64,000 nucleotides of DNA, taken from NCBI GenBank assembly GCA_958295925.1, contig OY282384.1, forward strand, positions 1,572-65,571, read 5' to 3'. This DNA is from an uncultured Acidimicrobiales bacterium (lineage in GTDB: Bacteria > Actinomycetota > Acidimicrobiia > Acidimicrobiales > CATQHL01). Each line of letters opens with the position of its first letter. The stretch's first letter is position 1. Positions 3,728 to 62,605 of the stretch are shown here, piece by piece. Both the position numbers and the translations under genes were made by a program. The notes under the pieces are model-generated. The model was given only the letters and a program-made list of their open reading frames with translations, searched no databases and was not told the DNA's origin.

Positions 3728-3775
3728 TTTCCCGGTTTGGGGCCGTGTTGGGGTCCCGCGTTTCGGCGGGGTTCC
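3728..3775 (+). repeat. intergenic TTTCCCGGTT element, copy 1 (long form)
   Basis: tttcccggtttggggccgtgttggggtcccgcgtttcggcggggtt; about 80% identical to copies at 61766 and 62561. Confidence 0.6.
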
Positions 3776-3813
3776 CGACAGGGCAGAGAGACTTGACCAA
3801 CAGACCATCCGCC

Positions 3814-3860
3814 GCTGGGCGAAGGGAGTTAAGCCTTCCTTCGCCCAGCGGCCTTTTTTT
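3814..3860 (+). terminator. rho-independent terminator
   Basis: GCTGGGCGAAGG / CCTTCGCCCAGC perfect 12-bp stem, 12-nt loop, then 7 T (3854-3860). Confidence 0.75.
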
Positions 3861-3911
3861 ACTGCCCCGCATTGTACCGGCCTACCCACCGGCCGGAAAG
3901 GAGAACTAACT

Positions 3912-4151
3912 ATGAGAACCACCCAAGCGACCATCACCGCCACGGAGCAGGCCGACCTGGAGCGGGTCCGCCGCCTGATTACCCGGAACTCGGACGGCCT
4001 GGCCAGTTGCTACGAATGCAACCGCGACTTCCCCGCCCGGGAACTCATCATCACCCGCTACTACGACGCTCACCGCATCGAATGCGAGGAGTGCCAAGCC
4101 CGCCGGGAGATGATAGAAGAACAAACCGACGTCTTCTACGCGTCAAGATAA
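3912..4151 (+). CDS. small zinc-ribbon-like protein
   Basis: GGAAAGGAG SD; 79 aa with CYEC..(36 aa)..CEEC. Confidence 0.6.
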   Translation: MRTTQATITATEQADLERVRRLITRNSDGLASCYECNRDFPARELIITRYYDAHRIECEECQARREMIEEQTDVFYASR

Positions 4152-4363
4152 CCGCCCGGCGTAGAAAAGACCCTCCGGCCCATCCTTACGAATTCCATTC
4201 ATTGGAAACAACGAAACATCCACGTTTCGTCCCCTGACGGGAATCACGGATTTCGTAAGGATGAGACCATGAGCATACTATTGAGGACCACCAGCCCCAA
4301 CGCTAAACCGCCGGCCCACCCCCCAGGGCTAACCAGCCCGACGCCGGCCATAAGGAGGCAGAT

Positions 4364-4837
4364 ATGCCCGCACCGCGAAATACCGAAGCCCCGGCCCACT
4401 ACGAAGACATCCTGCACCAGTGGCCCGACTGCCCCGGCTGCCAGGCCGCACAGCCCATACCCTACGGCTGCTACGTATGCCGCCAGACCGACCGGCCCAG
4501 CGCGACCTGGTCCGCCTTCCATCCGGGAGCCTGGCTCTGCCGGGAATGCCGGAGCAGCGTCTACGCCGCCGACCCGGTGCGCTACCAGTTCGACTTGGAA
4601 AGCATCCTGGCGCTGCCCGACTTCGACCGCTTCCTGCAGGGCGCCGTCCCCCTGGGCCGGCAGCTCCGCGAGGAGCTGGAGAACCAGGCCCAGGGCTGCC
4701 ATACCTGCGGCAACGACAAGGTAGACAACAGCCACCGGCTGACCATCGCCGCCGGCGGCTATTGGCTCTGCCCCAATTGCGTCTATGCCATGTCGCTGGA
4801 GAACATCGCCCGCGCCGCCGGAGTGCCTACCAACTAG
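4364..4837 (+). CDS. Cys-rich (multi CxxC) protein
   Basis: TAAGGAGG SD, ATG 4364; CPGC, CYVC, CREC, CHTC, CPNC pairs. Confidence 0.6.
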   Translation: MPAPRNTEAPAHYEDILHQWPDCPGCQAAQPIPYGCYVCRQTDRPSATWSAFHPGAWLCRECRSSVYAADPVRYQFDLESILALPDFDRFLQGAVPLGRQLREELENQAQGCHTCGNDKVDNSHRLTIAAGGYWLCPNCVYAMSLENIARAAGVPTN

Positions 4838-4889
4838 GCCCCGGCCGGCCCCGGCAGGACCCAAACTAGATTCTCAGGAGGTGAACCCT

Positions 4890-5042
4890 ATGCCTACCCT
4901 AGCGCAACGGGAAGCTGCCGCCGCCCGCGTCCGGCAGTCGCAAGCCCAAGAGGAAAACGCCCGCCAGGGGCTTCTTCCCGGTTTGCCGCCGAGTTACACC
5001 AGACTTGGTGGGAACCAGTATTTTGGGAACCCAGTATTATAG
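4890..5042 (+). CDS. small hypothetical protein (50 aa)
   Basis: AGGAGG 4876-4881 + 8 nt + ATG 4890 (the optimal pattern in this window); its 3-prime half overlaps element copy at 4984 so the product is uncertain. Confidence 0.4.
   Translation: MPTLAQREAAAARVRQSQAQEENARQGLLPGLPPSYTRLGGNQYFGNPVL
4984..5003 (+). repeat. intergenic TTTCCCGGTT element, short copy
   Basis: gcccgccaggggc hairpin then cttcttcccggtttgccgccg. Confidence 0.45.
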
Positions 5043-5065
5043 AATTTCAGGAGGTGAGAACCATC

Positions 5066-5656
5066 ATGACTCAAGCAACTCTCAGCGGCGGGACCATCAC
5101 CGCGCCCGCCGGAACCAACGTCGTCGTCAATGGCCTCAACATCACCGTGCCCGAAGGCGGGACCGTCAGCTGGGGCGACCAAGCCGCCCAGGCCCCGGCG
5201 GCCTACCCGGGGGCGCAGCACGGCAGCTACCCGTGCCAGACCTTGCCCCGCGTCCAGCGGAACGGCGAAGTGAACCATCCCGGAGTCCACTGGTGCATCT
5301 ACGCCGAGGGCGAGGAGGACCGCATGGACGCCGGCAAGCCCTTCGCCAACCACGACGCCTGGGTCGCGGCCTTCGACGACCTGGTCCTGGACACCAAGAC
5401 CGCCGCCCCCGACGGGATTCATAATTTCACCCTGCGGGGCGACCGCGGCAAGCAGCACCACGGCATCGTGGTCAACAAGGGCCACATCGAGGCCGCCTTC
5501 GCCTGCCAGGCGATTTATATGGCCCACTGCCGGGACAACGACGTCAAGCAGGAGGCCAGCAAAGGCGAGCACCTGCTGAAGAAGTCCGGCTTCCTGCTGG
5601 AGAGAATCGAGTGGGACAGCCTCAAGGGCATCTTCGTCATCGAACTCGGCTGCTAG
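5066..5656 (+). CDS. hypothetical protein, family C copy 1
   Basis: AGGAGGTGAGAACC then ATG 5066 (GTG 5054 is part of the SD); shares APDGxHxF..HG(I/C)VV(N/K)(K/D)G..(I/F)xxL(E/T)WD with 5765 and 6239 genes. Confidence 0.65.
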   Translation: MTQATLSGGTITAPAGTNVVVNGLNITVPEGGTVSWGDQAAQAPAAYPGAQHGSYPCQTLPRVQRNGEVNHPGVHWCIYAEGEEDRMDAGKPFANHDAWVAAFDDLVLDTKTAAPDGIHNFTLRGDRGKQHHGIVVNKGHIEAAFACQAIYMAHCRDNDVKQEASKGEHLLKKSGFLLERIEWDSLKGIFVIELGC

Positions 5657-5764
5657 CCAGCCCCAGGCACCGGCCGCCCCTGGAGAGAGATTACAGCGCA
5701 ACGCTCTATTCCCTTCCCGGGGGCGGCCGCCGGCCCCAAATCTGCACACCAGGAGGTAAGAGTG

Positions 5765-6922: not shown

Positions 6923-7714
6923 ATGCCGGAAGTGATAAACGACCTGCCTGCGAAGTTTCACCAGCGACTGTTCCAGGAAGACGTGACAGCAGTCCTGAAA
7001 CGCCTGCCCGACGCCTGCCTGGACGTAGTCTACGGCGACCCCGACTACAACGTCGGGATCAAGTATTCAGGCCATTCCTATACCACCGAGTGGCAGGAAT
7101 ACGTGGACTGGTACGTGGAACTGGCTACCCAGTGCCTGCGGGTATTGAAGCCTACGGGTAATTTATTCCTCATCAACTACCCGAAGCAGAACGCCTACCT
7201 CCGAGTCCTGGCCTTGGATAGATTGGCCCACGCGGTCCACGACTACGTCTGGGTCTTCAATACCAACGTGGGGCACTCGCCCCAGCGATTCACGACTGCG
7301 CACCGGTCAATCCTTCACGCGGTGAAGTCGCCGGACAACAACTGGCACAAGGACGCCGTGGCCCAGCCCTACCTGAACCCCCGGGACAAGCGCATCCAGA
7401 CGCGCATCGCCCAAGGCGAAACGGGCCGGATGCCCTACTCCTGGCTGAACTTCGAACTGGTCAAGAACGTCGCCAAGGACAAGACCGAGCATCCCTGCCA
7501 GATTCCGGAAGGCCTTTCGGAGTTATTGCTGAAGGCCGCCGCCCGGCCCGGCGACTCCGCTTTCATCCTATTCGGCGGCTCCGGCTCGGAGGTGCTGCAG
7601 GCAGAGCGACTAGGACTCACCTGGCTGAGCTGCGAACTCTCCACCGAGTTCTGTGAATTGATCGAAAACCGGCTGGCCAAGCAGCGTCAGCTGGAACGCA
7701 GCCGGCTGCTTTAG
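6923..7714 (+). CDS. DNA methyltransferase, beta-class N6-adenine/N4-cytosine type
   Basis: VVYGDPDYNV (DPPY-type motif IV) early, then HPCQIPEGL and FGGSGSE (SAM motif I region) near the C-terminus. Confidence 0.8.
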   Translation: MPEVINDLPAKFHQRLFQEDVTAVLKRLPDACLDVVYGDPDYNVGIKYSGHSYTTEWQEYVDWYVELATQCLRVLKPTGNLFLINYPKQNAYLRVLALDRLAHAVHDYVWVFNTNVGHSPQRFTTAHRSILHAVKSPDNNWHKDAVAQPYLNPRDKRIQTRIAQGETGRMPYSWLNFELVKNVAKDKTEHPCQIPEGLSELLLKAAARPGDSAFILFGGSGSEVLQAERLGLTWLSCELSTEFCELIENRLAKQRQLERSRLL

Positions 7715-7761
7715 GGCGGACACCCCCGCCGCCTTATTAGACTACTTCCCCGAACTCCGCG

Positions 7762-7790
7762 TTTCCCGGTTTCCCAGGCTGTGGCTGAAA
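7762..7790 (+). repeat. intergenic TTTCCCGGTT element, copy
   Basis: ccgcgtttcccggtttcccaggctgtggc in the 200-nt gap after the methylase gene. Confidence 0.5.
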
Positions 7791-7914: not shown

Positions 7915-9504
7915 ATGTTCGTAGAACAGCCACCCCAAGACAGCCGAAGCGCCCCGCGGACCGAAACCCGGCCCCCGAGGCAGAAGAACCCCCAGAAGGG
8001 CCAGCAACCCGACATCAAGCGCGGCCAGCAGATGCCCTTCCCCAAGAAGTTCCCCCGCACCATCGAGCTGACCGGAGATCTGACCACCAGACTGACCCTC
8101 AGCCTGGCCCTCACGGTCCGCCTGTACCGCAGCGTCAATCCCAACGGCATCGACCTGGTCATCGCCGAGGTTGAATCCATCCAAGAATCGGTCCACGGCG
8201 ACAGCGAGGAGCAGGCCATCGACCGGCTGCGCCTGCATCTGGCCGAGCTGTACCACACGCTGAACGACAGCCAGCACCTGCTGGGCGCCGCCCAGGAGCG
8301 CACCCGACTGACGTTGAACGGCTACATCGCAGTCAAGCAAAGGACCGCGCCACCGGCGCCACCGGCCCCCGAAGCAGCGCAAACCGCAGCACCAGCTGGA
8401 GAGAGCGAGAAGAAGAAGAGTAGCGCCGGAGCCCTATGGATAATCGCCCTCCTGCTCATTGCAGGCGGCGGCGGCGGATACTGGGGCTTCCTCGAATACA
8501 TGATCGTGATCGAAGCCAACCGGGCGTACGCGGCTAACTACGTTGCCGTCCAGCGGCACGTCAAGAACATGGAAGCAACCCAGGCCGCGTACCATTCAGA
8601 AATAGCGGCAAGCCACGCCGCATACGAGAACCTGCGAGGCAAGCACAACTCACTCGTCGGCGAATTCAACGTCCTCGCTGGAGACTACAACCAGCTGCAC
8701 GAAGAGTACAACACGCTGACCAACAGCTTCAACAGCATGGTCGGATACCGTAGCGGCACCAGCAGCCAAGGCCGCCACACCACCAGAGTGACCACCTATA
8801 AAGGAGCCGAAGTAGACATAACCGTCGAAGGGTTCAACAACAACCAGAAGCGGTTCTGGGAACTCCGGGACGCCATCAACGGCCTGGAAGGCTTGCTCAA
8901 CAAGCCTTATCCTACCCCGGCAGTAACGATGTCAGCCGTCCACGCATTCCAAGAGGACAACAGCATTTGCGGAGTGCATTCCAGGCAGTGGCAAACGACC
9001 TACTCGGGCCACTACCACATTATGCCTTCCCACATCCAGGTCGCCACCAACCAGGACTGCAGCGATACCATCTCCGGGACCATCATCCACGAAGCAGCCC
9101 ACGGCTTCTTCACGAATAAAGGCAGCGACTTCAACCATCCCGACTGGACCGAGGAGGGACTAGTGGAAGACCTCGTCTTCCAGCTACTGCCGTCAGACCG
9201 GCAGAGCACACGCTGCCCTTACCATCGGAACCTCCACGAGCTGGAGCAAGCAATGCTGGGCACCAACTTCGCGGGGGAATGCGCCTACAACCTGGGCACC
9301 GGGCTCTACCGAGAACTACGCCACCATTACGGCGACACCGCCTTCAACCGAATGGCCGCCAGCTTGGCCATAAGGCGAAGCGGATGGGAGAGCGCACTCG
9401 AAGCGCGAGACGTCCACGACATCGCCAACATCTTCGCCCGCAACGACCAGGCAGCCGCCGAGATCATCGGCAAATGGTACTACGGCAACCCCAACCGCCA
9501 TTAA
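7915..9504 (+). CDS. membrane-anchored coiled-coil protein with C-terminal HExxH (Peptidase_MA-like) domain, copy 1
   Basis: GAAGGAGG SD; TM ALWIIALLLIAGGGGGYWGF; heptad-like N/Y-rich repeats; TIIHEAAHGFF..DWTEEGLVE; C-terminal domain paralogous to 13055..14764. Confidence 0.7.
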   Translation: MFVEQPPQDSRSAPRTETRPPRQKNPQKGQQPDIKRGQQMPFPKKFPRTIELTGDLTTRLTLSLALTVRLYRSVNPNGIDLVIAEVESIQESVHGDSEEQAIDRLRLHLAELYHTLNDSQHLLGAAQERTRLTLNGYIAVKQRTAPPAPPAPEAAQTAAPAGESEKKKSSAGALWIIALLLIAGGGGGYWGFLEYMIVIEANRAYAANYVAVQRHVKNMEATQAAYHSEIAASHAAYENLRGKHNSLVGEFNVLAGDYNQLHEEYNTLTNSFNSMVGYRSGTSSQGRHTTRVTTYKGAEVDITVEGFNNNQKRFWELRDAINGLEGLLNKPYPTPAVTMSAVHAFQEDNSICGVHSRQWQTTYSGHYHIMPSHIQVATNQDCSDTISGTIIHEAAHGFFTNKGSDFNHPDWTEEGLVEDLVFQLLPSDRQSTRCPYHRNLHELEQAMLGTNFAGECAYNLGTGLYRELRHHYGDTAFNRMAASLAIRRSGWESALEARDVHDIANIFARNDQAAAEIIGKWYYGNPNRH

Positions 9505-11285: not shown

Positions 11286-12365
11286 ATGCCATTGACCACC
11301 CCAGGAGCCGACCCCAAGGCCGTAGAGCTAAACCAGTACCTGCAAGCCCTGCACCCATCCCCAGCCATGATATTATTCGGCGCCCACGCCCGAGGCGACC
11401 ACCGCCCCGGCCAGACCTGGATCCACGTCGTCATCTACGACGGCCTGCGCCGGCCGCAGGACCGCTGGGCCCTGGACGAGCAGAGTGAGGCCAAAGCCGA
11501 AGAACTATACGGCCACACCCAGCGCGTCTGGCTGCACGACTACCAACCCGAACGCTGGGCGGAGGAACGCCGCTTCTGGAACTCCACCGCCAGCAACGCC
11601 TACCACGAAGGCATCTTCGTTCCGCCACCGACCGAACCGACCGCCGGCCAGGACCTCCTGACCCCCGACCTACAGGAACGACTGCGACAGACGGTCGCCA
11701 TCGCCGGCCCGGTGGAACAACTCTACGACTGGACCAGGTTCGACGACCACCTGAGACACGCCGAAAAATTAGGCCGCTGGCTACGGAAGAAGCCCCGCGA
11801 GGCCCGCCTCCCGTTGAACAATTCCACGGAAGACCAGGAAGCGCGAGCCGGAGACGCCCAGCTCTACCCCGAAGCCCACGCGATAATCAAGAACATGATG
11901 CGGGGCCACGCCGTGCGCGCCGACGCCGCCCTGGGCCACTGGGCCGCCGAAATGGTCAGCCAAGCCCTCAGAGCCCGCGCCCTGGCCGCCGGCTACCACT
12001 ACGACGCCCACCCCATGAGCAACCGCGGGCACAGCTTGCCTATACTCACCACCGCCTGGGAGGTGGACTGGGACTTCCCAGGAATTACATGGCCCATCCC
12101 GGCCCGGATCTACGACCAGTACGTGGAACACGAAGGCGGCGACCTGGCGGAAAGGCTGACCGACCAGCCGTATTGGGAACGCGCCACCATGCAGCTGGTC
12201 AAAGAACTACTCCAAGCCGCGAAACAAGACCGCGCCTACCACGAACCCCGCGGCGGCCCGCCCAAGGCGAACTATCTTTATCGAACACCCCAGGCCCTGG
12301 CGGAGCGAAGTCGCTACGGCGAGATTCCAGCGTTCCCCGCTGCTTTTCCCGGTTCGCGGCGGTAA
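11286..12365 (+). CDS. nucleotidyltransferase-like + HEPN-like fusion protein
   Basis: MILFGAHARGDHRPGQTWIHVVIY resembles the MNT motif LFGSxARGD..DxD (DxD not conserved); C-terminal half has AAGYHYDAHPMSNRGHSLPIL resembling the HEPN (PF05168-type) helix. Confidence 0.5.
   Translation: MPLTTPGADPKAVELNQYLQALHPSPAMILFGAHARGDHRPGQTWIHVVIYDGLRRPQDRWALDEQSEAKAEELYGHTQRVWLHDYQPERWAEERRFWNSTASNAYHEGIFVPPPTEPTAGQDLLTPDLQERLRQTVAIAGPVEQLYDWTRFDDHLRHAEKLGRWLRKKPREARLPLNNSTEDQEARAGDAQLYPEAHAIIKNMMRGHAVRADAALGHWAAEMVSQALRARALAAGYHYDAHPMSNRGHSLPILTTAWEVDWDFPGITWPIPARIYDQYVEHEGGDLAERLTDQPYWERATMQLVKELLQAAKQDRAYHEPRGGPPKANYLYRTPQALAERSRYGEIPAFPAAFPGSRR
12344..12362 (+). repeat. intergenic TTTCCCGGTT element, copy overlapping a gene end
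   Basis: cagcgttccccgctg hairpin then cttttcccggttcgcggcgg; overlaps the last codons of 11286..12365. Confidence 0.5.
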
Positions 12366-12471
12366 GTCTTCCGTGGCTTCCCTTCATTGCCGGCGTGATT
12401 GCCGTTATGATTGCGTCAACTGGAAAACGCGGAGAACTACCGACATTCTTCATAGAAAGGAGCAATGCATC

Positions 12472-12906: not shown

Positions 12907-12958
12907 AGCCCACCGGGCTTGGCCTTCATTGGCCGAACCCGGTGGGCTTAAATTTTTA
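12907..12958 (+). terminator. rho-independent terminator
   Basis: AGCCCACCGGG / CCCGGTGGGCT 11-bp stem, then TAAATTTTT. Confidence 0.75.
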
Positions 12959-24848: not shown

Positions 24849-24927
24849 AACAGCAGGCCAATCCCTAACCCCGCCAGCGGCGCTACGACAAGACAACCAC
24901 CAGACCGACAAAGGAGAACCAAACAAC

Positions 24928-27163: not shown

Positions 27164-27234
27164 CCGGACACAGCCGGGACCACAGACGAGACCATAGACC
27201 GACACAGACCGGCCTGGAACTCACCCAGGCCAAA

Positions 27235-28190: not shown

Positions 28191-28191
28191 A

Positions 28192-47833: not shown

Positions 47834-47859
47834 CCCCAACTAACAAGGAGGATTGCCTC

Positions 47860-48120: not shown

Positions 48121-48135
48121 GGGCAAGGACGGAAG

Positions 48136-48420: not shown

Positions 48421-48458
48421 GCCCCAGCTACCCCAACTCCAATAGGAGCATTCCCACC

Positions 48459-49807: not shown

Positions 49808-49808
49808 C

Positions 49809-50249: not shown

Positions 50250-50286
50250 GAGAAGAACCTGCATTGCAAGAATCAGGAAGACGAAA

Positions 50287-50997
50287 ATGGGATTCGGACG
50301 AGACCTAAGGGCCGCAGCCACCTTCGGAACAGTTCACACCAGGAAGCATAAGAACGCCGAAGACGCGCTAGAAAGGCGGACAGTCATCCACGAAGAAAGA
50401 GTAAGGCAGTTCTACGAAAGCAGAGAACGCCTCCAGACCCACGTCAAAGAAATGAACCAAGCATTCAACCAAGCCCAAGAAGTCCTCCGCACCAAAAAGC
50501 CAATAGGCCAGCCCAATGATTCCAACTCGAACCGAAGAGTAGAAGACCCAGGAATAAACTTCGACGAATTATTCGACATACACATGCTATTCCCCTGGCC
50601 ACCCTTCCTGGGCTTAGGCATAATCACACTGCCGCTCGGAGCAGCCATCGCTGGGAAACAAGAAAGAGAGTTCCTAGAAATGAGCAGGCAATCCGCGGAA
50701 CGGATGACCGCAATAGAAAGCGACTTCAACTCAATCACAGAGAAACTGCCGCCATACCAGGACCTGCAAAGGACAACGGAAGAGCTACAGACACATACGA
50801 GGGAACTAGCAGAAAGCACACCCGAGGCACCGGCAGAGGAAGAGCATGCCTACCAATTAGAACAAGCGATGCTCCAGGCATTACACCTGATACGAGCAAT
50901 CAACGAAGCGACTGGAGAACCAGACACCAGCCAGTTCTACCGCCAGCATAGGCAACAAGAAGGACCCGAGCGAGTAAACGGAGCCATACCACTCTAG
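50287..50997 (+). CDS. divergent G-family member (reduced hydrophobic core, no N-terminal TM)
   Basis: TFGTVHTRKHKNAEDALER aligns with GGLTATKHGSDRIKRAQ; core reduced to PPFLGLGIITLPLGAAIAG. Confidence 0.55.
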   Translation: MGFGRDLRAAATFGTVHTRKHKNAEDALERRTVIHEERVRQFYESRERLQTHVKEMNQAFNQAQEVLRTKKPIGQPNDSNSNRRVEDPGINFDELFDIHMLFPWPPFLGLGIITLPLGAAIAGKQEREFLEMSRQSAERMTAIESDFNSITEKLPPYQDLQRTTEELQTHTRELAESTPEAPAEEEHAYQLEQAMLQALHLIRAINEATGEPDTSQFYRQHRQQEGPERVNGAIPL

Positions 50998-51025
50998 TAA
51001 GAACCACCACGTCAAGAGGAAGCCC

Positions 51026-51403
51026 ATGGTAGCATCAGCAGCGTTCACCGGGGCCAGAATAGCCGGCCCCGCCATAGCCAGCCTACTGTTCAAGTACCTC
51101 ACCCAGGACACCGAGAAGACCGACCTGGAAGTAGCGAAACTACACGCCCAACGCGACGTCCTCATCGCCCAGATCAACGCCGAGCAGCAAGTCCTCCAGT
51201 CCTACATCGACCAACGATTCGCCGAACGCCGCGGCTCCCTGGACGACCTCTTCGGCCTCCTACACCAGGCAGTCGATAATAATAACAACGACCAGATACA
51301 CGTCATGCTAGCCGGGATCCTGAACATCATGCAGCAGAACCCCCTGGAAGAACTCAACGTCTTCATCGAACGCTGGGAGCAAGGGCACATCATAGAGATC
51401 TAA
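51026..51403 (+). CDS. small partner protein (S family, member 2)
   Basis: RFAERRGSLDDLFGLLHQAV..HIIEI. Confidence 0.65.
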   Translation: MVASAAFTGARIAGPAIASLLFKYLTQDTEKTDLEVAKLHAQRDVLIAQINAEQQVLQSYIDQRFAERRGSLDDLFGLLHQAVDNNNNDQIHVMLAGILNIMQQNPLEELNVFIERWEQGHIIEI

Positions 51404-51438
51404 ACAGAGCACAAAGTCTCAAGGAGTCGAATACGACC

Positions 51439-53829
51439 ATGCCATTCTTCATCCCCATCCTCGTTGGTATCGGAATAGCCGCCGCGTTAAGCGGCTCAGG
51501 CGCCGCAACTATCCACGCCAACGATCGTAAGAAGAAAGCCAGGAAACGCCTGAAGCGGAGCGAAACGGAATACACCAACCAAGGCCAGAAGACCCAAGAC
51601 TTCCAAGAACAAGTAAACAAAGCGATCGAGAGCTTGGGCCAAGACCGCATCGACGCCATGCGGACGATCAAGGAGGCAATCACTTTCCTGCAACAGGCCA
51701 GACTGAAGAATCCCAACCTGATCGTTGACGACCTGCTCAAAGACCTCCAGGAGCTGGAGAAGCTAGGCCAGATCTACGACCCCATACTAAGCAAGATAAC
51801 AACCAACGCCGCCGGGACCGCCGGCGGCCTGGCCGTGGGCGCCTTAGCTTCACTAGGAGCCTACGGCCTAGCCAGCACCATCGGCATCGCCTCTACCGGC
51901 GCAGCCATCTCCGGACTCAGTGGAGCCGCCGCCAGCTCAGCAGCCCTAGCCTGGCTAGGCGGAGGGGCACTAGCCGCCGGTGGCGGAGGCGCAGCCCTAG
52001 GCGCCAACCTGATACTGCCAGGAATCGCGATCATCCCCACCATTGCCGCGTGGGGCATACTGGCGGAGTTCCAGGCCGGGAACTTCGAGAAGAAAGTGGA
52101 CGACGAAGTCTCCCGCATCAGAAAGGAAATCAGCGAGCTCAAACTGCTCCATACCAAGTTCGACGGCATCCACCAACGCACCCAGGAAATCAGCCGAGCC
52201 GTAAGAGAACTGAACCAGCTACTCCAGGAACAGCTGAAGACCGAACGGCAGAAAGAAGCCGCCGGCCAGGCGACCAAAGAAGAAAAGTACGCCGGACTAC
52301 AGCGGATCGCCCTGCTGGCCAAAGCACTGCGCGACACCCTGGACATCCCGGTAATCAACAAGAACGGCGAGGCCGCCACCGGACCAGTCCGTTCCCCACA
52401 CCATCCCAACGGCTCACAGGCATCGCTACCCAGCGCCCACCCAACAAGAGTGGAGAGCTATCAAACCACCAAGACCATCACCCGCTCCGGCACCGGCGCC
52501 GCCGTCCCCCAGGTCTTCACCCTGAACAGCGGACTAGCCATCATCGAGTGCGAGCACCGCGGCGAGGGAACCTTCCAGGCCACCCTCGAACCAGCCAACA
52601 AAGAAGCCGGAGACCCGGCCGTAACATTGGCCGACACGGAAGGAAGCATCAAACGACAGCAACTCGTCATGATCCAACCCCACCCGGCCGAAACCGCCGG
52701 AAAGCCATTTCCCAAGACCTACTACCTGAGAGTCAAAGCCAGCGGCAAATGGACCGTAACCATCACCCAGCCCAGGGCCGGAGGCAGCAAAGCCCCCACC
52801 GACTGGAACGGAACAACCACCCCACCCCACCAGCCCTATTTCTCAGCGCCCTTCACCATCGGCTCCCAGCCAATCGCGCTGCATCACGAACAGAAGAACC
52901 CCTCACCATTGAGCGTCACCGCCTACCCCGTGGACGGCAGAGGCGAACCGATCGACATCATCCGCTCGGTGAATCAGAACGGCCCCGCCAGCAACCTGCT
53001 CCTCCAGCCCAACACCGAATACATGCTGGAAGTGGAAGCCGCCAGCGATTGGTCCCTCACCGTCGTCCCGCCGCCACAATCAAAAACGCTTCAGGCCCCC
53101 GACCAAAAAGCCCTGCGCAAGGCCCTGAACGCCGGCCGAAGCGTCGAACGCCGCGGCACCGACAGCCGGAAAACGACCACCACCTTCCACCTGATCCCCG
53201 GCCTAGCCCTGGTCACCACCAAGCACGAAGGCGCCGGACAATTCAAGGTAGTGCTACGCCCCAACACCGCCCCCAACGGCCATTCAACAGGCGCCACCCC
53301 GCAACCAACCCCGGTACCCCACATCGTCCTGATCGACAAGGTAGGCGCAGCCGACACCAACGACCTTTACGTCATCATGAACGAAGCGCCACCGGCACCG
53401 CCAAGCAAGGATACAACTGAAGAGACCAGCCCCACCGTGAGAACCCAGTCCATCCAGACCGGCCCCTGGCCCTGGAAGGACTACACCCTGGAAGTAACCG
53501 CCGACGGCCCCTGGAAAATCAAACTCAGCCAACCCGCCGCCGGCCTGGCCAAGCCCTGCCCCGGCTGGCAAGGCGAAGGCATGCTGCCCGGACGCAGCGT
53601 CATCACCGAGCCGGTCACCTTCCCCAGCGCCAGCCGCCAACTCTTCCTAGAGCACTCCGGCCCCGGAGCTTTCATCGTCGACGCCTACCCGGTGGACGGC
53701 AGCAGCCCGCCGGTCAACCTGGTCCGAACCAAAGGAAAATACGCCAAACGCCCCGAGACCGAACTGAAAGAGAACTTAGAATACCTACTGGAAATCCAAG
53801 CCGAAAGCGACTGGAAACTCAAAGCCTAA
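51439..53829 (+). CDS. G-family N-terminal module fused to a duplicated beta-rich C-terminal region
   Basis: MPFFIPILVGIGIAAAL; STGAAISGLSGAAASSAALAWLGGGALAAGGGGAALG; two C-terminal repeats of about 224 aa (VFTLNSGLAIIECEHRGEGTFQATL / TFHLIPGLALVTTKHEGAGQFKVVL). Confidence 0.7.
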   Translation: MPFFIPILVGIGIAAALSGSGAATIHANDRKKKARKRLKRSETEYTNQGQKTQDFQEQVNKAIESLGQDRIDAMRTIKEAITFLQQARLKNPNLIVDDLLKDLQELEKLGQIYDPILSKITTNAAGTAGGLAVGALASLGAYGLASTIGIASTGAAISGLSGAAASSAALAWLGGGALAAGGGGAALGANLILPGIAIIPTIAAWGILAEFQAGNFEKKVDDEVSRIRKEISELKLLHTKFDGIHQRTQEISRAVRELNQLLQEQLKTERQKEAAGQATKEEKYAGLQRIALLAKALRDTLDIPVINKNGEAATGPVRSPHHPNGSQASLPSAHPTRVESYQTTKTITRSGTGAAVPQVFTLNSGLAIIECEHRGEGTFQATLEPANKEAGDPAVTLADTEGSIKRQQLVMIQPHPAETAGKPFPKTYYLRVKASGKWTVTITQPRAGGSKAPTDWNGTTTPPHQPYFSAPFTIGSQPIALHHEQKNPSPLSVTAYPVDGRGEPIDIIRSVNQNGPASNLLLQPNTEYMLEVEAASDWSLTVVPPPQSKTLQAPDQKALRKALNAGRSVERRGTDSRKTTTTFHLIPGLALVTTKHEGAGQFKVVLRPNTAPNGHSTGATPQPTPVPHIVLIDKVGAADTNDLYVIMNEAPPAPPSKDTTEETSPTVRTQSIQTGPWPWKDYTLEVTADGPWKIKLSQPAAGLAKPCPGWQGEGMLPGRSVITEPVTFPSASRQLFLEHSGPGAFIVDAYPVDGSSPPVNLVRTKGKYAKRPETELKENLEYLLEIQAESDWKLKA

Positions 53830-53864
53830 AGCCAACAGCCCCACGCACTAGAAGGAAGCATCAC

Positions 53865-54257
53865 ATGCCTTTTCACACATTTACCGAGGGCCACGTAGGA
53901 CACCCCACCAGCGAATACAAAGAAGCCCACTGGGTCAAAGCAAAGAACATCCGCATCAACCTGGACCACGTCACCCACGTCTACGAAGCCGACTACGGCA
54001 GCATCGCCACCCACCAACAGAGAACCGAACACTACTTCCACCTGGTAACCGGAGAGACCATCAGAATAGACGAAGAGTACCTGCCGCCCTGCGACAATTG
54101 CCTGGAACCAATCCTACCCCAGGGCATCCAGAACGACCACGGCCTGCGCAAGTGCATCCCCGCCCCCAGCGTCATCGCCCTGCGGGAACGCGCCAAAGCC
54201 GAACACGAACAGCAGATGCAGGAAATCAGCCAAGCCAACTATCCTCAGGCCATCTGA
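53865..54257 (+). CDS. hypothetical protein
   Basis: GAAGGAAG SD; track ORF 130 aa. Confidence 0.55.
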   Translation: MPFHTFTEGHVGHPTSEYKEAHWVKAKNIRINLDHVTHVYEADYGSIATHQQRTEHYFHLVTGETIRIDEEYLPPCDNCLEPILPQGIQNDHGLRKCIPAPSVIALRERAKAEHEQQMQEISQANYPQAI

Positions 54258-54305
54258 ACCCGGTTAGACTGAAAGCACCCCCACCAGCATAAGGAGCCGC
54301 CCGCA

Positions 54306-55196
54306 ATGCCCCTACCCATAATCATCCCAATCGCCATCGGCGCCGTCACCCTGGTCGGCGGCCTCACCGCCACCAAGCACGGCTCTGACCGAATCAAACG
54401 CGCCCAAGCCCATCATCAACAGGAATACGACGCCTACGCCAACCAGCACCAGCACACCGTCGCCGCCCAGCAGGAAATCGACGAGCATTACCTGCCACTA
54501 TTGGGACAGATGCGACTGGACGCGATGGCCGCCGTCCGCGAAGCCATCAAGCTGGCCAACCAAGCCGTTCAACACCACGCCCACGCCCTGCCCGACTCGC
54601 TCCACGACGAATTAGTGGAACTCAAGAACAGCCACGGAGTCTACGACTCACTACTGGACCAGACCACCCTCCCGGGCAGCACCCTGGCTACCCAGGACAT
54701 GGCCCAACTAGGCGCCTCAGGGCCGTCTTCCGCCATCAACGCCATCAGCGCCGCCGGCACCGGAGCCGCCATCTCGGGCTTGGGCAGCCTCTACGCCGCC
54801 AAGGCCGGAATAGCCTGGCTGGGCGGCGGTACTTTAGTCGCCAGCGGAGCCGGCATCGCCGGGGGCGCAGTGCTGCTGGGCGGGTTGGCCGCCGGGCCAC
54901 TCCTGGCCATGGGAGTGCTCAAAGAGATAAAGGCCGGCCGCGTCGAAAAAGAAGTGGAAATCGAAGTGGACCAGCTGCACCGGCAGATGAACCGGCTGAC
55001 CGCGCAGCGGGAACGCATGGACAAGAGACTATTCCGCATCGGCGAACTCCAGGGCACTCTGGACCGGAAGAGCCGGGCCCTGGCCCGCTACACCCAGAAG
55101 CTAGACCTCACCCAAGCGGAGGCGCCCGAGGCGCTACACCAACTAGCTATCGGCATCCGAGAGCTGCAGCAGCTGATCAATGAACCAGTGCACTAA
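54306..55196 (+). CDS. G-family member 4
   Basis: MPLPIIIPIAIGAVTLVGGLTATKHG; GTGAAISGLGSLYAAKAGIAWLGGGTLVASGAGIAGG. Confidence 0.7.
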   Translation: MPLPIIIPIAIGAVTLVGGLTATKHGSDRIKRAQAHHQQEYDAYANQHQHTVAAQQEIDEHYLPLLGQMRLDAMAAVREAIKLANQAVQHHAHALPDSLHDELVELKNSHGVYDSLLDQTTLPGSTLATQDMAQLGASGPSSAINAISAAGTGAAISGLGSLYAAKAGIAWLGGGTLVASGAGIAGGAVLLGGLAAGPLLAMGVLKEIKAGRVEKEVEIEVDQLHRQMNRLTAQRERMDKRLFRIGELQGTLDRKSRALARYTQKLDLTQAEAPEALHQLAIGIRELQQLINEPVH

Positions 55197-55229
55197 GACA
55201 GGACAATACCCAAAGATTGGAGGGCAAAT

Positions 55230-56165
55230 ATGCCGCTACCGCTACTGATACCCATAGCCCTGGGGGCCGCCAGCATCATCACCGGCCTCACAGCCACAAA
55301 ACACGGTGAACATCGCATCAAGAAAGCGCAAGAGCACCTCCAAGCTGAGTATGACCTCTACAAAGCCCAGCACGAAGAGACAGCAGTATCAGTCAACCGA
55401 TTCAACGACGAAGCACTTCCACTCTTTGGACAATCAAGGCTCCATGCCATTGAGAACCTAAGGATGGCCTTCGAGTACACCAACCAACAGTGGGAGGAGA
55501 ACCCAGAGCTCCTCGGCGAGGAAGGGAGAGCCAAACTGGAAGACCTAGCCGCAAAGCAGGAAGCATACAACACTATCGTCGATGAGTATGCCAACGCGAA
55601 GACCGGACTAGGCACCGGGGCACTCGCGACCCTAGGCGCAGCAGGGATCGCCGGCGCGTTTGGCACTGCCGGGACCGGCGCGGCCATCAGCAGCCTAAGT
55701 GGCATCTACGCCGTAAAAGCAGGACTAGCCTGGCTAGGGGGCGGCACCCTAGCCGCCGGAGGGGCCGGAATGGCCGGCGGAGCCAGCCTACTCGGTGGAC
55801 TAGGCGGCATCCCGATACTCGCCATCGGCATCCTCAAGGAGGGAAAAGCCGACAAAGTTGAGAAAGAGGTCGAAAAAGAGGTAGCCAAGCTACAAGAGAA
55901 GAAGCACAAACTTCTGCAGGAAAAGAACAGAATAGACCAACTCAGCCTCGACTCCGCTGAACTCCATTACCGCATGAACCTAGAAGGCAAAGCAGTACTA
56001 AAGGCAATAATGCGCACAGAACGTAGCGAGAAGTGGTTAGCTTGGCTCTACCAAATCTACCAGCTCATCTGGAGACGACCATTCCCAGGGAAAGTGAAGA
56101 ACATCAATCGCATCATCACCCGCGCAGCAACACTACAAGCAACCCTGCAGCAGAAGCTGATCTAG
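55230..56165 (+). CDS. G-family member 5
   Basis: MPLPLLIPIALGAASIITGLTATKHG; GTGAAISSLSGIYAVKAGLAWLGGGTLAAGGAGMAGG. Confidence 0.7.
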   Translation: MPLPLLIPIALGAASIITGLTATKHGEHRIKKAQEHLQAEYDLYKAQHEETAVSVNRFNDEALPLFGQSRLHAIENLRMAFEYTNQQWEENPELLGEEGRAKLEDLAAKQEAYNTIVDEYANAKTGLGTGALATLGAAGIAGAFGTAGTGAAISSLSGIYAVKAGLAWLGGGTLAAGGAGMAGGASLLGGLGGIPILAIGILKEGKADKVEKEVEKEVAKLQEKKHKLLQEKNRIDQLSLDSAELHYRMNLEGKAVLKAIMRTERSEKWLAWLYQIYQLIWRRPFPGKVKNINRIITRAATLQATLQQKLI

Positions 56166-56247: not shown

Positions 56248-58131
56248 ATGACTAACGCCGCCAACAGCCAGGCAGTCCAACAGCCAGGGCATAAATCGCC
56301 TCTTACAGAGCCGATTTATGCCCAAGGTCCCCTCAATCGCGGTGTCTATATCGCCGACAACTACCATTTCCTCCAGTCCTTAAACTCAGAAAGCATCGAC
56401 CTCTGCGTCATCGACCCGCCCTTCGCCAAAAACGAAACCTTCGGCCGCCGCAATCCCAAGAACCCGGACCCGCTGAAACCGCCCCTCTCCGCCCTGGAAC
56501 AGCAGACCGAGCTGGAACTCCTGGCCCGCTGGGGCATCCACAACCAGGAACAAGCCGACCAAGCCGGCATCAACTGGCCCGAAACCCGGTACCACGACAT
56601 CTGGTCCTGGGAGAAGGACATCCATGAGAACTGGCTGACCGACTTGAAGGCCGACCACCCGGCCATCGCCGAGCTGATCGAAGCGGCCGCCCTGACCCAC
56701 AGCGACTCCACCGCCGCCTACCTCTGCTACATGGCAGTCCGCCTGCTGGAGATTCACCGCGTGCTGAAAGCCACCGGGAGCCTGTACCTCCACTGCGACC
56801 ACACCGCCAACGGGTATTTAAGAATGCTGCTGGACGCAGTATTCGGACACCAGAACTTCAGGAATGAGATCACATGGAGAAGAACCTACGCCCACAACGA
56901 ACAGAAACAATATGGCCGCACCAGCGACACCATACTGTTCTACAGCAAGTCAACAGAACATAAATGGAACAGGGTACTAACCCCCTACACAGAGGAGTAC
57001 AAAGGAAAGTATTTCAATTACTCGGACGAGAGGGGAATATTCCAGCCAATCACATTGACCGGAGCAGGAACTACCCGCGCCGAGTCCGGCAGCACCTGGA
57101 AAGGATACAACCCAACAGATTCAGGGAGACACTGGAGCATCCCTAGACGAATCATCCAACAATTAGTTGGAGAAAAAGCAAACCAACTTTCCCTGGAAGA
57201 GAAGATGAACCTACTAGAGCGGGAAGGATACATCTATTGGCCCAAGGAAGGGAACACACCCAGAGTTAAACAATATCTCCACGAGATGAAAGGGACACCA
57301 GTCCAAGACATCTGGACTGACATCGGACCACTCTCTGCACACGCAGCCGAACGCACCGGCTACCCCACCCAGAAACCAGTCGCCCTGTCCGAAAGAATAA
57401 TCAAAGCCTCCACCAACGAAGGCGACGTCGTCCTGGACTGCTTCGCCGGCTGCGCCTACGTCCCCGTCGCCGCCGAAAGATTGAATCGACGCTGGCTGGC
57501 CTGCGACCTCAACCCCCGCGCCTGGACCGTCTTCAAACGCCAATTTTCCAAGCCCTCCCTGGCTCTGCTGGACTGCCAGGAGGAGACCCACGACCAATAC
57601 ACTCTGGGCGAAGGCTTCAACGGCCTGGCCACCGTCCACGGGCCCAACGAACTGCCGGTCCGCACCGACCCGGAGCACAACGGCCACGCCAAGACCAGGA
57701 ACCTGCCCACCCCGGAACGCAAGTTCAAAGTCCCCGCCGCCAACATGCCGAACCAGCTAATGCTGCAGAAATTACTGGAACTCTCCGGCTACCAGGCCTG
57801 GTGCTGCGGCTTCGCCAATCGCAAGGCGGACGGTACAGTAGTCCAGACCACCAACAACTTTCACCTGGACCACATCAACCCTAAAAGCGTCAGCGGCTCC
57901 GGCTGGTCCAACGACATCACCAACCGCGCCCCGCTCTGCCCGCATCACAATATTCAGAAATCCAACCGCAGAGTCGGATTATACGAACTCCGCCAGGAGA
58001 TAGAAAAGGCCGGCGAGCTGCTAGTCGACTCCGTCAGGGAACTGAAAGACCTGGACCAAGCCCACCACCAGGCCCTGCAGCTGCACCTAAAAGCAGAGCT
58101 GGATAAGCAGCAGCCATTCGTACAGCTGTAG
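56248..58131 (+). CDS. beta-class DNA methyltransferase fused to a C-terminal HNH nuclease domain
   Basis: LCVIDPPFAKNE (motif IV); GYPTQKPVAL..VVLDCFAGCAY (motif I region); C-terminal FHLDHINPKS..NRAPLCPHHNIQKSN (HNH). Confidence 0.85.
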   Translation: MTNAANSQAVQQPGHKSPLTEPIYAQGPLNRGVYIADNYHFLQSLNSESIDLCVIDPPFAKNETFGRRNPKNPDPLKPPLSALEQQTELELLARWGIHNQEQADQAGINWPETRYHDIWSWEKDIHENWLTDLKADHPAIAELIEAAALTHSDSTAAYLCYMAVRLLEIHRVLKATGSLYLHCDHTANGYLRMLLDAVFGHQNFRNEITWRRTYAHNEQKQYGRTSDTILFYSKSTEHKWNRVLTPYTEEYKGKYFNYSDERGIFQPITLTGAGTTRAESGSTWKGYNPTDSGRHWSIPRRIIQQLVGEKANQLSLEEKMNLLEREGYIYWPKEGNTPRVKQYLHEMKGTPVQDIWTDIGPLSAHAAERTGYPTQKPVALSERIIKASTNEGDVVLDCFAGCAYVPVAAERLNRRWLACDLNPRAWTVFKRQFSKPSLALLDCQEETHDQYTLGEGFNGLATVHGPNELPVRTDPEHNGHAKTRNLPTPERKFKVPAANMPNQLMLQKLLELSGYQAWCCGFANRKADGTVVQTTNNFHLDHINPKSVSGSGWSNDITNRAPLCPHHNIQKSNRRVGLYELRQEIEKAGELLVDSVRELKDLDQAHHQALQLHLKAELDKQQPFVQL

Positions 58132-58255
58132 CCTACAGAGACCGGAATAGGAAACCCAACAGAGGGTGATCCAAGCCCATTTTGTCAACAGCGAGGATTT
58201 TGAGTGAGTGCAACAAAAACAGCCGATTCCCGGCCGTTTGTCAACAGCCGCCCAG

Positions 58256-60496: not shown

Positions 60497-60637
60497 AAAA
60501 CAACACCACCCCCGCCAAGAGATTACTTTCCCGATTATAGAAAAGAGAGAAAGCCTACTCTCTAAACGAAAACGCCCCCAGTCCTAAACCACTGCCCCGC
60601 AGCTGCAATCCGGCTTCCGCCGTCTGGTTTGGTTCCT

Positions 60638-60659
60638 CTTCCCCGGTTGCGGGCGGTGG
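60638..60659 (+). repeat. intergenic TTTCCCGGTT element, variant copy
   Basis: cttccccggttgcgggcggtgg upstream of 60752 gene. Confidence 0.45.
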
Positions 60660-61165: not shown

Positions 61166-61269
61166 ACGATAGGCCGCCAGGCCACAGAGAACCCCTTCCC
61201 GGGGCCAAGACGCCGCCCCAGCGACCAAAGAGCCGCCAGCCGGGAGCCAAACCAGCCCCCGGCTGCTTC

Positions 61270-61289
61270 TTTCCCGGTTCGCGGCGTGG
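61270..61289 (+). repeat. intergenic TTTCCCGGTT element, copy
   Basis: CAGCC-ccc-GGCTG hairpin then cttctttcccggttcgcggcgtgg. Confidence 0.55.
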
Positions 61290-61348
61290 GGCGTCGCCAG
61301 CCCCACGATCGACTTTCCCAACTCTTATTCATAAAGGAGGACATATTC

Positions 61349-61663
61349 ATGTCTAACAACGCCACCCCCAGCGCCACCGCAGTCGCCGACTGCACTCTGG
61401 AGAACCACTGCGCCCTCTGCGCCCGCCTCATGGCTCATCCCAAGAACACCGCCGCCGGCGTCCTGGAAATGTGCGCCGACAGCCGGCGCGACGGCCAGGC
61501 CGGCCCGGAACGCGAACACGCCGCCAACGTCAAGATGGGCCTCTGCCGCCCCGACTCCCCGCCGCATCAGCGGGCCTGCCCGGAAAAGTATTGCGTATCC
61601 TTCTCCGCCGGTGAAATATGCAGACATCAGTGCAGCGGCTGCGGCGCGCCCCTCGGCGCGTAG
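61349..61663 (+). CDS. small Cys-rich protein
   Basis: AAAGGAGG 61333-61340, ATG 61349; 104 aa with 8 Cys (CALCARL, CSGCG). Confidence 0.6.
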   Translation: MSNNATPSATAVADCTLENHCALCARLMAHPKNTAAGVLEMCADSRRDGQAGPEREHAANVKMGLCRPDSPPHQRACPEKYCVSFSAGEICRHQCSGCGAPLGA

Positions 61664-61745
61664 ACCGCCCTCCCGGCCCGACACAAGCCCCCCAGGGCCT
61701 CTCAGCAGCTACCCCGCTGCCCGGGAGCCCCCCAGGGGGCCAATC

Positions 61746-61808
61746 AACGCCTACCCCGGCGTTTCTTTCCCGGTTTCAGGCCGTTTGGTTCCGCGGTTCG
61801 GGCGGAGT
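61746..61808 (+). repeat. terminator hairpin + TTTCCCGGTT element (long form)
   Basis: AACGCC-N6-GGCGTT then tctttcccggtttcaggccgtttGGTTCCGCGGTTCGGGCGGAGT; last 22 nt identical to 62584-62605. Confidence 0.7.
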
Positions 61809-61891
61809 CGTCGTGTCTTGGAGTTTTATAGACGTGAGACCGCCCGCGCCGCAGAGAATCAGGCAAATCTTAAAGAAAGCAGGTGAAAATT

Positions 61892-62470
61892 ATGTCCTTC
61901 AAACCCTTCCACGGCATGATCATCGTCCCCCGGGAAAAGCAACCCGTCGTCTTCCAGCCGACCCAGCCGCTGGACACCCTGCCGCGCATGGTCTTCCAAA
62001 ACGACCCCGTGGCCCAGGTCATCAACTACATCAAGGCGACCCCGCCCCGGATCGCAGGCTGCCTCTATCGCGACGGCCAGGTCATCCAGGGCCTGATCGA
62101 AGAGAGCACTCGCGACCGCAACTGGAACTTCGTCATCAATCGGCCCTACGCCTTCCCGCTGCTGCACGGCGACTTGGAAAAGTGGTACGGCCCCCACATC
62201 TATGGGCTGCACGCGCCGGACCGCACCTGGCTGCTCTATATCGACCACGAATACCGCCCCCACGGGAATTCGGGCAACGTCATTCTGCATGAGAATACGC
62301 CCGGCGCCATCGACCGGCTGCTCAGCGGCGACTTCAGCCAAGGCTGGCGGATGGACAAGTCCGCCCACACAGTCGGCGGCGCCATGCGCGACGCGGCCAA
62401 GACCCACCAGTGGGTGCTGGAGAACCACCTCCGCGCGGCGGAGCAGGCTGCTGCAGCAGCATCAGCATAG
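61892..62470 (+). CDS. hypothetical protein, family F copy 1
   Basis: AGGTGA SD, ATG 61892; TWLLYIDHEY..SQGWRMDKSAHTVGGAMRDAA parallels DWLLWVNPSL..PKGWRFDAAMGWKLAGLA in the next gene. Confidence 0.6.
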   Translation: MSFKPFHGMIIVPREKQPVVFQPTQPLDTLPRMVFQNDPVAQVINYIKATPPRIAGCLYRDGQVIQGLIEESTRDRNWNFVINRPYAFPLLHGDLEKWYGPHIYGLHAPDRTWLLYIDHEYRPHGNSGNVILHENTPGAIDRLLSGDFSQGWRMDKSAHTVGGAMRDAAKTHQWVLENHLRAAEQAAAAASA

Positions 62471-62506
62471 CCGGCCAGCGGCAGCTACCGCACTGTAGTA
62501 AAGCCC

Positions 62507-62563
62507 AGTCCCCTGGGGAGCAGCACCCCCCAGGGGACTGGCAGCCCCTCCCAGGGGCTTTTT
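62507..62563 (+). terminator. double-hairpin rho-independent terminator
   Basis: AGTCCCCTGGGG / CCCCAGGGGACT (12 bp), then AGCCCCT-ccc-AGGGGCT followed by TTTTT. Confidence 0.8.
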
Positions 62564-62605
62564 CCCGGTTTTCGGCCCGGGGGGTTCCGCGGTTCGGGCG
62601 GAGTG
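62561..62605 (+). repeat. intergenic TTTCCCGGTT element (long form)
   Basis: tttcccggttttcggcccgggGGTTCCGCGGTTCGGGCGGAGT. Confidence 0.7.

Follow-up and report, generated by a model that had tools for sequence, protein, structure and literature searches.

A strand-specific 12-nucleotide box at gene boundaries of an orphan Acidimicrobiales contig: a possible signal of transcription punctuation

The DNA considered here, referred to below as the window, is a stretch of 64,000 nucleotides (nt) from contig OY282384.1 (assembly GCA_958295925.1) of an uncultured Acidimicrobiales bacterium. It represents ~10% of this 643.5-kb contig (643,545 bp), and nearly all of its genes lie on the + strand. Two arrays of small ORFan genes, at 3.7–12.4 kb and 60.6–62.6 kb, carry at their gene boundaries eight copies of a 12-nt box, TnTTTCCCGGTT, one of them degenerate. 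All copies are found on the + strand, which is the coding strand (Table 1). The array genes have no Pfam family, and the genes downstream of the copies are not paralogues of one another. The initial annotation of this DNA had described a recurrent element in a single orientation, interpreted as a terminator-plus-promoter or processing cassette, a protein-binding site, or a small repeat of the REP or miniature inverted-repeat transposable element (MITE) kind. The repeat is a genuine, statistically strong and element-specific regulatory signal that lies outside every described family. It belongs with the gene-boundary regulatory cassettes, a type already familiar from phage and plasmid genomes.

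Table 1. The eight copies of the repeat and their parts. ORF, open reading frame.
Feature	Positions	Strand	Parts	Setting
Copy 1, long form	3710–3771	+	hairpin AAGGC-gct-GCCTT 3710–3722; box TCTTTCCCGGTT 3726–3737; GGC 3741–3743	30 nt past stop 3698; strong canonical terminator 3811–3860, then next start 3912
Copy 1, second degenerate box/hairpin	3755–3770	+	CCCGC-gtttcg-GCGGG	
Copy 2	4959–4983	+	4-bp hairpin GCCC-gccag-GGGC 4959–4971; box TTCTTCCCGGTT 4972–4983	within 50-codon ORF 4890–5042; 92 nt ahead of start 5066; strong hairpin follows, 4980–5016
Copy 3	7760–7771	+	box CGTTTCCCGGTT, no adjacent hairpin	stop 7714 48 nt before; start 7915 153 nt after
Copy 4	12328–12381	+	hairpin CAGCG-ttccc-CGCTG 12328–12342; box CTTTTCCCGGTT 12343–12354	overlaps final codons of ORF 11286–12365; start 12472 is 127 nt on
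Copy 4, second degenerate box	~12369–12379	+	TTCCGTGGCTT	
Copy 5, degenerate	60637–60648	+	box TCTTCCCCGGTT; GTTTGGTTCC before, GCGGGCGG after	divergent spacer between minus-strand S1-domain gene (start 60496) and first array gene (start 60752)
Copy 6	61253–61279	+	hairpin CAGCC-ccc-GGCTG 61253–61265, extendable to CAGCCGGG...CCCGGCTG; box TCTTTCCCGGTT 61268–61279	105 nt past stop 61165; 79 nt ahead of start 61349
Copy 7, long form	61746–61808	+	hairpin AACGCC-tacccc-GGCGTT 61746–61763; box TCTTTCCCGGTT 61764–61775	next start 61892
Copy 7, second box	in 22-mer 61787–61808	+	TCCGC-ggttcgg-GCGGA 61790–61806	
Copy 8, long form	62543–62604	+	hairpin AGCCCCT-ccc-AGGGGCT 62543–62559; box TTTTTCCCGGTT 62559–62570; identical 22-mer 62583–62604	next start 62686

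The 10-mer TTTCCCGGTT occurs exactly at 3728, 7762, 12345, 61270, 61766 and 62561 (copies 1, 3, 4, 6, 7 and 8) and ranks 4th among the 10-mers of the window by frequency, although T makes up 12.7% of the + strand. The 9-mer TTCCCGGTT adds the copy at 4975 (copy 2) and is found seven times on the + strand and never on the − strand of the window; a third-order Markov model predicts ~0.07 copies. Composition alone, by arithmetic from the base counts, gives ~0.05 copies on the + strand and ~0.7 on the − strand, so the strand bias of the 9-mer runs against the composition. A position weight matrix built from the copies and scanned over both strands has recovered, besides the second boxes internal to the copies, only one extra copy, the degenerate TTCCCCGGTT at 60639 (copy 5), which is a variant with one insertion. 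The recurrence in one orientation is borne out by these counts. Most of the coordinates given in the initial annotation hold within 1 nt (12344 and 60638 are each off by one), while the copy placed at 4984 really lies at 4974/4975. The identical 22-mer reported for two long forms, GGTTCCGCGGTTCGGGCGGAGT, has been located at 61787 and 62583, and the long form at 3728 holds a diverged version of it. The shorter heptamer CTTYCCC was also considered as a spacer signal and was dropped, as it is frequent in coding sequence and not specific to spacers.

When the copies are anchored on CCCGG, conservation is limited to TnTTTCCCGGTT and a weaker GGC at +10 to +12, amounting to ~25 bits. Mean pairwise identity reaches 0.87 within the 12-nt box, compared with 0.31 for the 30 nt before it and 0.29 for the 30 nt after it, and 0.27 is expected from the composition. 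Since the identity is confined to the box and the flanks are at the random level, recent duplication does not account for the copies, and the constraint acts on the box. The spacers at 61766 and 62561 are an exception, being homologous over their full extent. Conservation limited to the box is better explained by selection for a short asymmetric site than by recent duplication. The near-invariant box between flanks of random identity supports the earlier suggestion of a protein-binding type of site.

A perfect hairpin of 5–7 bp with a loop of 3–6 nt ends 5–9 nt before CCCGG in five of the eight copies, compared with 5.4% of random anchors (binomial P = 2e-5). The small GC hairpin that had been attributed to every copy is therefore present with at least 5 perfect bp in copies 1, 4, 6, 7 and 8 and as a 4-bp stem in a sixth (4959–4971), and it is missing from the copies at 7762 and 60639. 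Every stem has a different sequence, so the structure is conserved and the sequence is not. The hairpin energies are modest (-6 to -12 kcal/mol, corresponding to percentiles 5–41 of random 32-nt windows). Likewise, the U-run after the stem is short, with 4–5 U in 8 nt by count except at 3728. A generic terminator scan (5 T in 8) accepts only the hairpins at 3710 and 61253, the others having 4 of 8 by count. By comparison, the canonical intrinsic terminators of the window, at 3811–3860, 12910–12950 and 27419–27459, have 6–7 T in the tract, and all three are without the box. A second hairpin is mostly present downstream of the box.

These hairpins could simply be ordinary intrinsic terminators, in which case the box would have no function of its own and its likeness between copies would be residual homology or gene conversion after local duplication. 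A hairpin with a T-run just past a stop codon in five copies, the abundance of tandem paralogues in the region and the homology of the 61766 and 62561 spacers throughout are all consistent with this explanation. On the other hand, identity is 87% in the box and only at the random level in the flanks, stems included, and neutral residual homology would not stop at 12 nt. The CCCGGTT part lies beyond the expected release point and is dispensable for termination, the hairpins and U-runs are weak, and the three canonical terminators do without the box. Two copies have no hairpin, and two precede the stop codon of the very ORF that they would have to terminate. Plain terminators are therefore a quite improbable explanation of the repeat. 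Termination alone would be insufficient because the invariant CCCGGTT needs explaining, and pure termination is also disfavored by the two copies inside ORF 3' ends, where efficient termination would give non-stop mRNAs. An attenuator or pause fits better than a full stop since the U-runs are short and the hairpins are weaker than the three canonical terminators.

The position of the copies relative to the genes has been described as just after a stop codon or overlapping the last codons. The first description holds for the copies at 3728, 7762, 61270, 61766 and 62561, which lie 30–105 nt past a stop, and the second is correct for the copies at 12345 (inside the last 7 codons) and 4974 (inside the last 23 codons). 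The copy at 60639 follows a divergent gene. The distance from the copy to the next start codon (79–184 nt) is fairly narrow compared with the distance from the previous stop to the copy (-68 to +105 nt). This spacing would suit an arrangement like the promoter-early stem-loops (PeSLs) of T4-type phages, in which the hairpin and U-run would end the upstream cassette and the box would be a non-sigma-70 promoter, or part of one, for the downstream cassette. Such a promoter might be read, for example, by a phage-type single-subunit RNA polymerase or by an element-encoded sigma factor. Terminating hairpins would oblige each cassette to have its own promoter, and the box is the sole conserved sequence between the hairpin and the start codon. 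The copy at 60639 heads its array with no co-directional gene upstream. The conserved part is also a contiguous block of 12–20 nt as opposed to the bipartite sigma-70 layout, and contiguous blocks are nearer to the promoters of single-subunit polymerases than to bipartite sigma-70 ones.

The window does contain ordinary bacterial signals, namely strong Shine-Dalgarno sequences and near-consensus sigma-70 promoters at 6820, 27235 and 27494, and no sigma-70 promoter has been found in any motif spacer. Because these spacers have no sigma-70 -35/-10 elements, any promoter at the motif must be of a non-sigma-70 type. The terminator-plus-promoter cassette of the initial annotation has accordingly kept its terminator-like part, with hairpins far above chance, and not a promoter part of the sigma-70 type. 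A promoter of another type is also difficult to reconcile with the lack of a -10-like element at a fixed distance and with the ~12 conserved nt, which are short for a complete promoter. Transcripts begun at the 3728 copy would be cut off by the strong terminator that precedes the next gene, and no polymerase or sigma gene has been seen in the window. Overall, we consider a promoter function of the box unlikely.

Three copies (3728, 61766 and 62561) have a second degenerate box (TTCCGCGGTT, TCCCGCGTTT) and the copy at 12345 has a weaker one (TTCCGTGGCTT), in each case 22–24 nt downstream of the first. The GTTTGGTTCC sequence ahead of copy 5 resembles the beginning of this second box in the long forms. 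With the two boxes separated by two helical turns, binding to them may be cooperative. The same second box folds in the long forms as a 5-bp hairpin whose outer pair is U-A in some copies and C-G in others, a change that could also speak for a signal read at the RNA level. In that case, the U-rich single-stranded box between hairpins would be an endonuclease processing site or a loading site for an antitermination factor. Precedents for such signals are the RNase III/E sites between phage T7 genes, lambda nut with boxA and boxB, and the ops pause element of RfaH. The order of hairpin, U-rich single strand and hairpin is seen in most copies, and a U-rich box is distinctive because U is rare in these mRNAs. 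The stem is 8–12 nt from CCC|GG, which resembles the distance in hairpin-stabilized pauses.

The RNA comparisons do not favor this explanation. The initial annotation had proposed a search for a conserved RNA with covariation, and the result has been negative: RNAalifold on the three long forms gives no supported consensus, with a positive covariation term that counts as a penalty, and there is no match to an Rfam family even at permissive thresholds (0 matches at the gathering threshold in the whole window, and nothing above noise when the spacers are searched at E<=5). In addition, nut and ops sites typically occur once per operon and not at each gene boundary, and no N-like or NusG-like gene has been found in the window. 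An RNA-level signal is considered quite unlikely.

The uniform orientation of the motif beside unrelated ORFan cassettes is also compatible with a mobile or recombination element, which may be a MITE or REP, a cassette boundary similar to the attC of integrons, or a homology patch that shuffles ORFan cassettes. Two copies seem to have replaced or overlapped gene 3' ends, and PeSLs have been reported to mediate cassette shuffling (PMC2839356). However, terminal inverted repeats are missing from the aligned copies, the hairpins differ in sequence, a MITE would need a longer conserved part, and no recombinase or transposase has been seen among the scanned ORFs of the window. This makes a mobile element very improbable. 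The REP/MITE-like repeat of the initial annotation is likewise not supported, as neither a target-site duplication consistent between copies nor a conserved palindrome is seen, and conservation extends over only 12–20 nt. The possible target-site duplications CAGAGAGA (3700/3784) and AGACCGCCC (61663/61836) were rejected since their position and length are inconsistent between copies. The imperfect palindrome of 20–40 nt typical of REP/BIME repeats is not present, with the upstream flank identity at 0.31 and a box that is not palindromic. The inverse core AACCGGG of integron attC sites is absent near every copy, and no integrase has been found among the scanned window ORFs.

Based on these observations, we favor, with a probability of about 0.4, a reading in which the repeat would join a weak terminator or pause, made of the hairpin and U-run, to an asymmetric box recognized by a factor that the element encodes, insulating and co-regulating the cassettes. 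The sequence itself shows the motif with its strand and position specificity, the box-limited conservation and the association with hairpins, and sigma-70 promoters, RNA families and hallmarks of mobile elements are absent. In the proposed mechanism, the signal at the boundaries of small ORFan gene cassettes would act as composite transcription punctuation made of three parts. The first would be the small GC hairpin, whose sequence varies, with the short U-rich run behind it, serving as a weak intrinsic terminator or a hairpin-stabilized pause. The second would be the near-invariant asymmetric box, which starts inside the U-run, together with the GGC 3 nt further on. The third would be the second hairpin and, in 3–4 copies, the second degenerate box about two helical turns downstream. 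RNA polymerase would slow or partly terminate at the hairpin and U-run, and a sequence-specific factor encoded by the element would recognize the box, most likely on DNA and with one monomer per box. This factor would then set how much transcription passes to the next cassette, acting either as an orientation-dependent roadblock, similar to the stoperators of mycobacteriophages, or through the loading of an anti-terminator. We infer both the pausing and the protein binding, and the direction of the effect could be either of these. As a result, the cassettes would be insulated from each other and yet regulated together.

Several observations weigh against such punctuation. Two copies (7762 and 60639) are without the hairpin. 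The copies are confined to the two ORFan arrays, and the 13–58 kb block, which has almost no intergenic space, has no copies. No DNA-binding or helix-turn-helix (HTH) regulator, NusG paralogue, sigma factor or RNA polymerase has been recognized among the ~60 window ORFs scanned, which come from ~10% of the contig. No copy overlaps a sigma-70 promoter, as an operator of the stoperator type would. As for conservation across relatives, no related element has been found in the genome, metagenome or viral collections searched.

It is rather unlikely that the box and hairpin represent something novel, either a bacterial factor-dependent terminator or insulator, in which a protein on an asymmetric site directly downstream would make release at the weak hairpin and U-run conditional, or the promoter of an undescribed RNA polymerase or sigma factor of this orphan element. 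The former would be mechanistically similar to the eukaryotic Pol I terminators of Reb1/TTF-I, or to a stoperator fused to a terminator. If the box and hairpin do form a regulated terminator, the stoperator idea would extend beyond the actinophages. If they are simply a family of terminators, their value stops at useful annotation. In the ORFan arrays, no other non-coding signal has been seen that is clearly under selection, and the rest of the element is close to dark matter. The box provides a handle to define the transcription units of the element and a bait, for DNA or RNA pull-down, for its own transcription regulator, antiterminator or polymerase.

The element that carries the repeat is itself unusual. 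The window has 61% GC, and its + strand is composed of 26.6% A, 34.0% C, 26.7% G and 12.7% T. This asymmetry is independent of gene orientation, since minus-strand genes have 26–30% T on their own sense strand, and the AT skew is 0.2–0.45. The asymmetry points to a strand-wide mutational or replication bias and not to a coding bias. The recognizable products are four DNA methyltransferases (three N6/N4 and one C5, at 6923–7714, 15589–16842, 31058–31930 and 56248–58131), a 1777-aa type-ISP-like enzyme with an Mrr nuclease and a ResIII helicase (39134–44467), an HATPase protein, a DUF5906 primase-like protein (28555–30456) and an S1-domain protein. Four methyltransferases and the Mrr/ResIII protein represent a heavy investment in DNA modification and restriction for 64 kb. 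The box contains CCCGG, which is an NciI-type CCSGG site, possibly by coincidence. The remaining scanned ORFs (~50) have no Pfam or PHROG family, and no phage structural genes have been recognized among the scanned ORFs of the window.

Searches for relatives of the element have given little. No match to phage records has been obtained with blastn and tblastn, and a plasmid search has returned only a distant similarity to type ISP restriction enzymes. The products of 7915–9504 and 28555–30456 are singletons in a database of 5.8 billion proteins, with the 643,545-bp NCBI/ENA contig as the sole record. None of the viral, genome and metagenome collections searched includes this contig. The element is a large, strand-asymmetric orphan, a bacterial mobile-element-like or virus-like genome that is otherwise uncharacterized. 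Neither a 19-mer of the long form nor the proteins adjacent to the motif have matches or relatives in viral contigs, and exact-product look-ups of 61349–61663, 61892–62470 (start call uncertain) and protein P0001 have returned no contig on record. The pattern YTTCTTTCCCGGTTYNNGGCS has 63 single, chance-like matches in genome contigs, where a rough estimate gives a few tens by chance, at least 120 single, chance-like matches in metagenome contigs and none in viral contigs. A looser pattern has 44 single matches in viral contigs. Loci with multiple or skewed matches (L090, L091, L107, L139 and others) were rejected as unrelated in composition or context, L090 having 46% GC. Among the soil metagenome contigs at two of these loci (L107, 6215–6290, and L139), an unrelated contig of 63–65% GC has three direct repeats TT(T)CCCGGTT, 20 and 23 bp apart. 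They lie directly upstream of a TTGACA hexamer and beside a gene that looks hslU-like by eye. The same 9-mer forms an iteron-like or operator-like array in that contig.

Additional signals have been observed in spacers of the window. A second spacer motif, CTGCCCCGCA, occurs in exactly three copies, at 3862, 12961 and 60592, which lie 50–160 nt ahead of the starts 3912, 13055 and 60752. Two of them directly follow the canonical terminators at 3811–3860 and 12910–12950, in the form TTTTTAC(G)CTGCCCCGCA. This motif could represent another class of signal, for boundaries or for promoters. The spacer at 4151–4364 is filled by a long imperfect hairpin, CCTTACGAA...TTCGTAAGG, at 4184–4262, which has no Rfam match. 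The direct repeat TTTGTCAACAGC occurs twice (58181–58192 and 58237–58248) in the convergent spacer between the end of a methylase gene at 58131 and the end of the minus-strand S1-domain gene at 58256.

Outside the arrays, the 27200–28250 region, with the promoters at 27235 and 27494, precedes the DUF5906 primase-like gene and looks like a region of replication control. It contains a putative small RNA of ~195 nt with a strong terminator at its end (27265–27460; minimum free energy -83.5 kcal/mol, z = -4.4). Within this RNA, 19 nt (27344–27362) are perfectly complementary to 27580–27598, the Shine-Dalgarno and start region of an ORF whose ATG is read at ~27600. The same region has five 12-nt tandem repeats, CAGCAACTGGAG, at 27735–27797, and inverted CTGGAG/CTCCAG clusters at 27901–27925 and 28036–28059. 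ARAGORN predicts a 95-nt tRNA-Arg(TCT) at 13581–13675 on the minus strand, opposite the ORF 13055–14764. Its length and position suggest a false positive.

Paralogues are frequent in the window. Tandem pairs are found at 251–751/742–1227, 2716–3231/3234–3698, 5066–5656/5765–6160 and 37706–38110/38115–38510, and the region evolves through local duplication. Four paralogues with an AWLGGG-containing domain are located within 47853–56165 (at 48.6–49.4, 51.4–52.2, 54.3–55.2 and 55.2–56.2 kb). A profile of this family (A4) has 1617 homologues, the closest with 33–36% identity at chromosomal loci of a bacterium of 61% GC (L228–L231). The homologue loci are flanked by genes for nitrile-hydratase subunits, with tRNA synthetase genes nearby, and may hint at the lineage of the host. 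The motif is not enriched at the chromosomal loci of the homologues. Three minus-strand paralogues without a Pfam family (1488–2597, 23700–25253 and 36379–37495; 35–42% identity) are the chief exceptions to the one-strand gene layout and are scattered among the plus-strand operons. The large ORFan proteins of 7915–9504 and 13055–14764 are related over ~250 aa at the C-terminus, where they have a domain in common (31% identity, E = 4e-22).

The repeat can be compared with several known systems. With intrinsic terminators it shares a co-oriented GC hairpin followed by a T-rich run past stop codons, the stem being present in five of the eight copies. By position, five copies lie past a co-oriented stop, those at 12345 and 4974 lie before the stop, and the one at 60639 lies after a divergent gene. 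It differs from intrinsic terminators in its weak hairpins and U-runs and in the invariant CCCGGTT that termination does not need. The ops/JUMPStart element of RfaH and the lambda nut site (boxA-boxB) are also short, orientation-specific elements, found in non-coding leaders once per operon. Of these, ops is tied to pausing, and nut has a U-rich box with a small hairpin behind it. Neither is related in sequence to the present repeat, which is found at every cassette boundary, and neither the NusG nor the N family has been matched among the scanned ORFs.

The stoperators of Cluster A mycobacteriophages are sites for immunity repressors of the L5 gp71 type, and they are bound as monomer sites and act on the elongating polymerase (PMC9283540, PMC6550527). 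Both stoperators and the present box are short (12–14 bp), asymmetric, multi-copy sites in short intergenic regions or at gene ends, and all copies point the same way with respect to transcription. The traits by which stoperators are described (~13 bp, asymmetric, multi-copy, one orientation) are all found here in a 12-nt box with 8/8 copies on the coding strand at gene boundaries. In contrast to stoperators, the box is joined on its upstream side to a hairpin and U-run in most copies, the copies are confined to ORFan arrays, and their sequence is unrelated. A stoperator site also serves as the operator at an early lytic promoter with an encoded repressor, whereas no copy is located at a sigma-70-like promoter here and no repressor or HTH gene has been found among the scanned window ORFs.

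The T4-type PeSLs combine a consensus sigma-70 -35/-10 promoter, which has an AT-rich upstream region, with a stem-loop that acts as a terminator or attenuator (PMC2839356, PMC4122927). Similar to PeSLs, the present repeat forms cassettes of a small stem-loop and a conserved sequence between the ORFans of a plastic region, with the upstream stop on one side and the Shine-Dalgarno sequence and next start on the other. The sigma-70 promoter that defines PeSLs is not found here, and conservation is limited to one 12-nt box. Judged by analogy, the repeat functionally resembles both stoperators and PeSLs and is a member of neither family.

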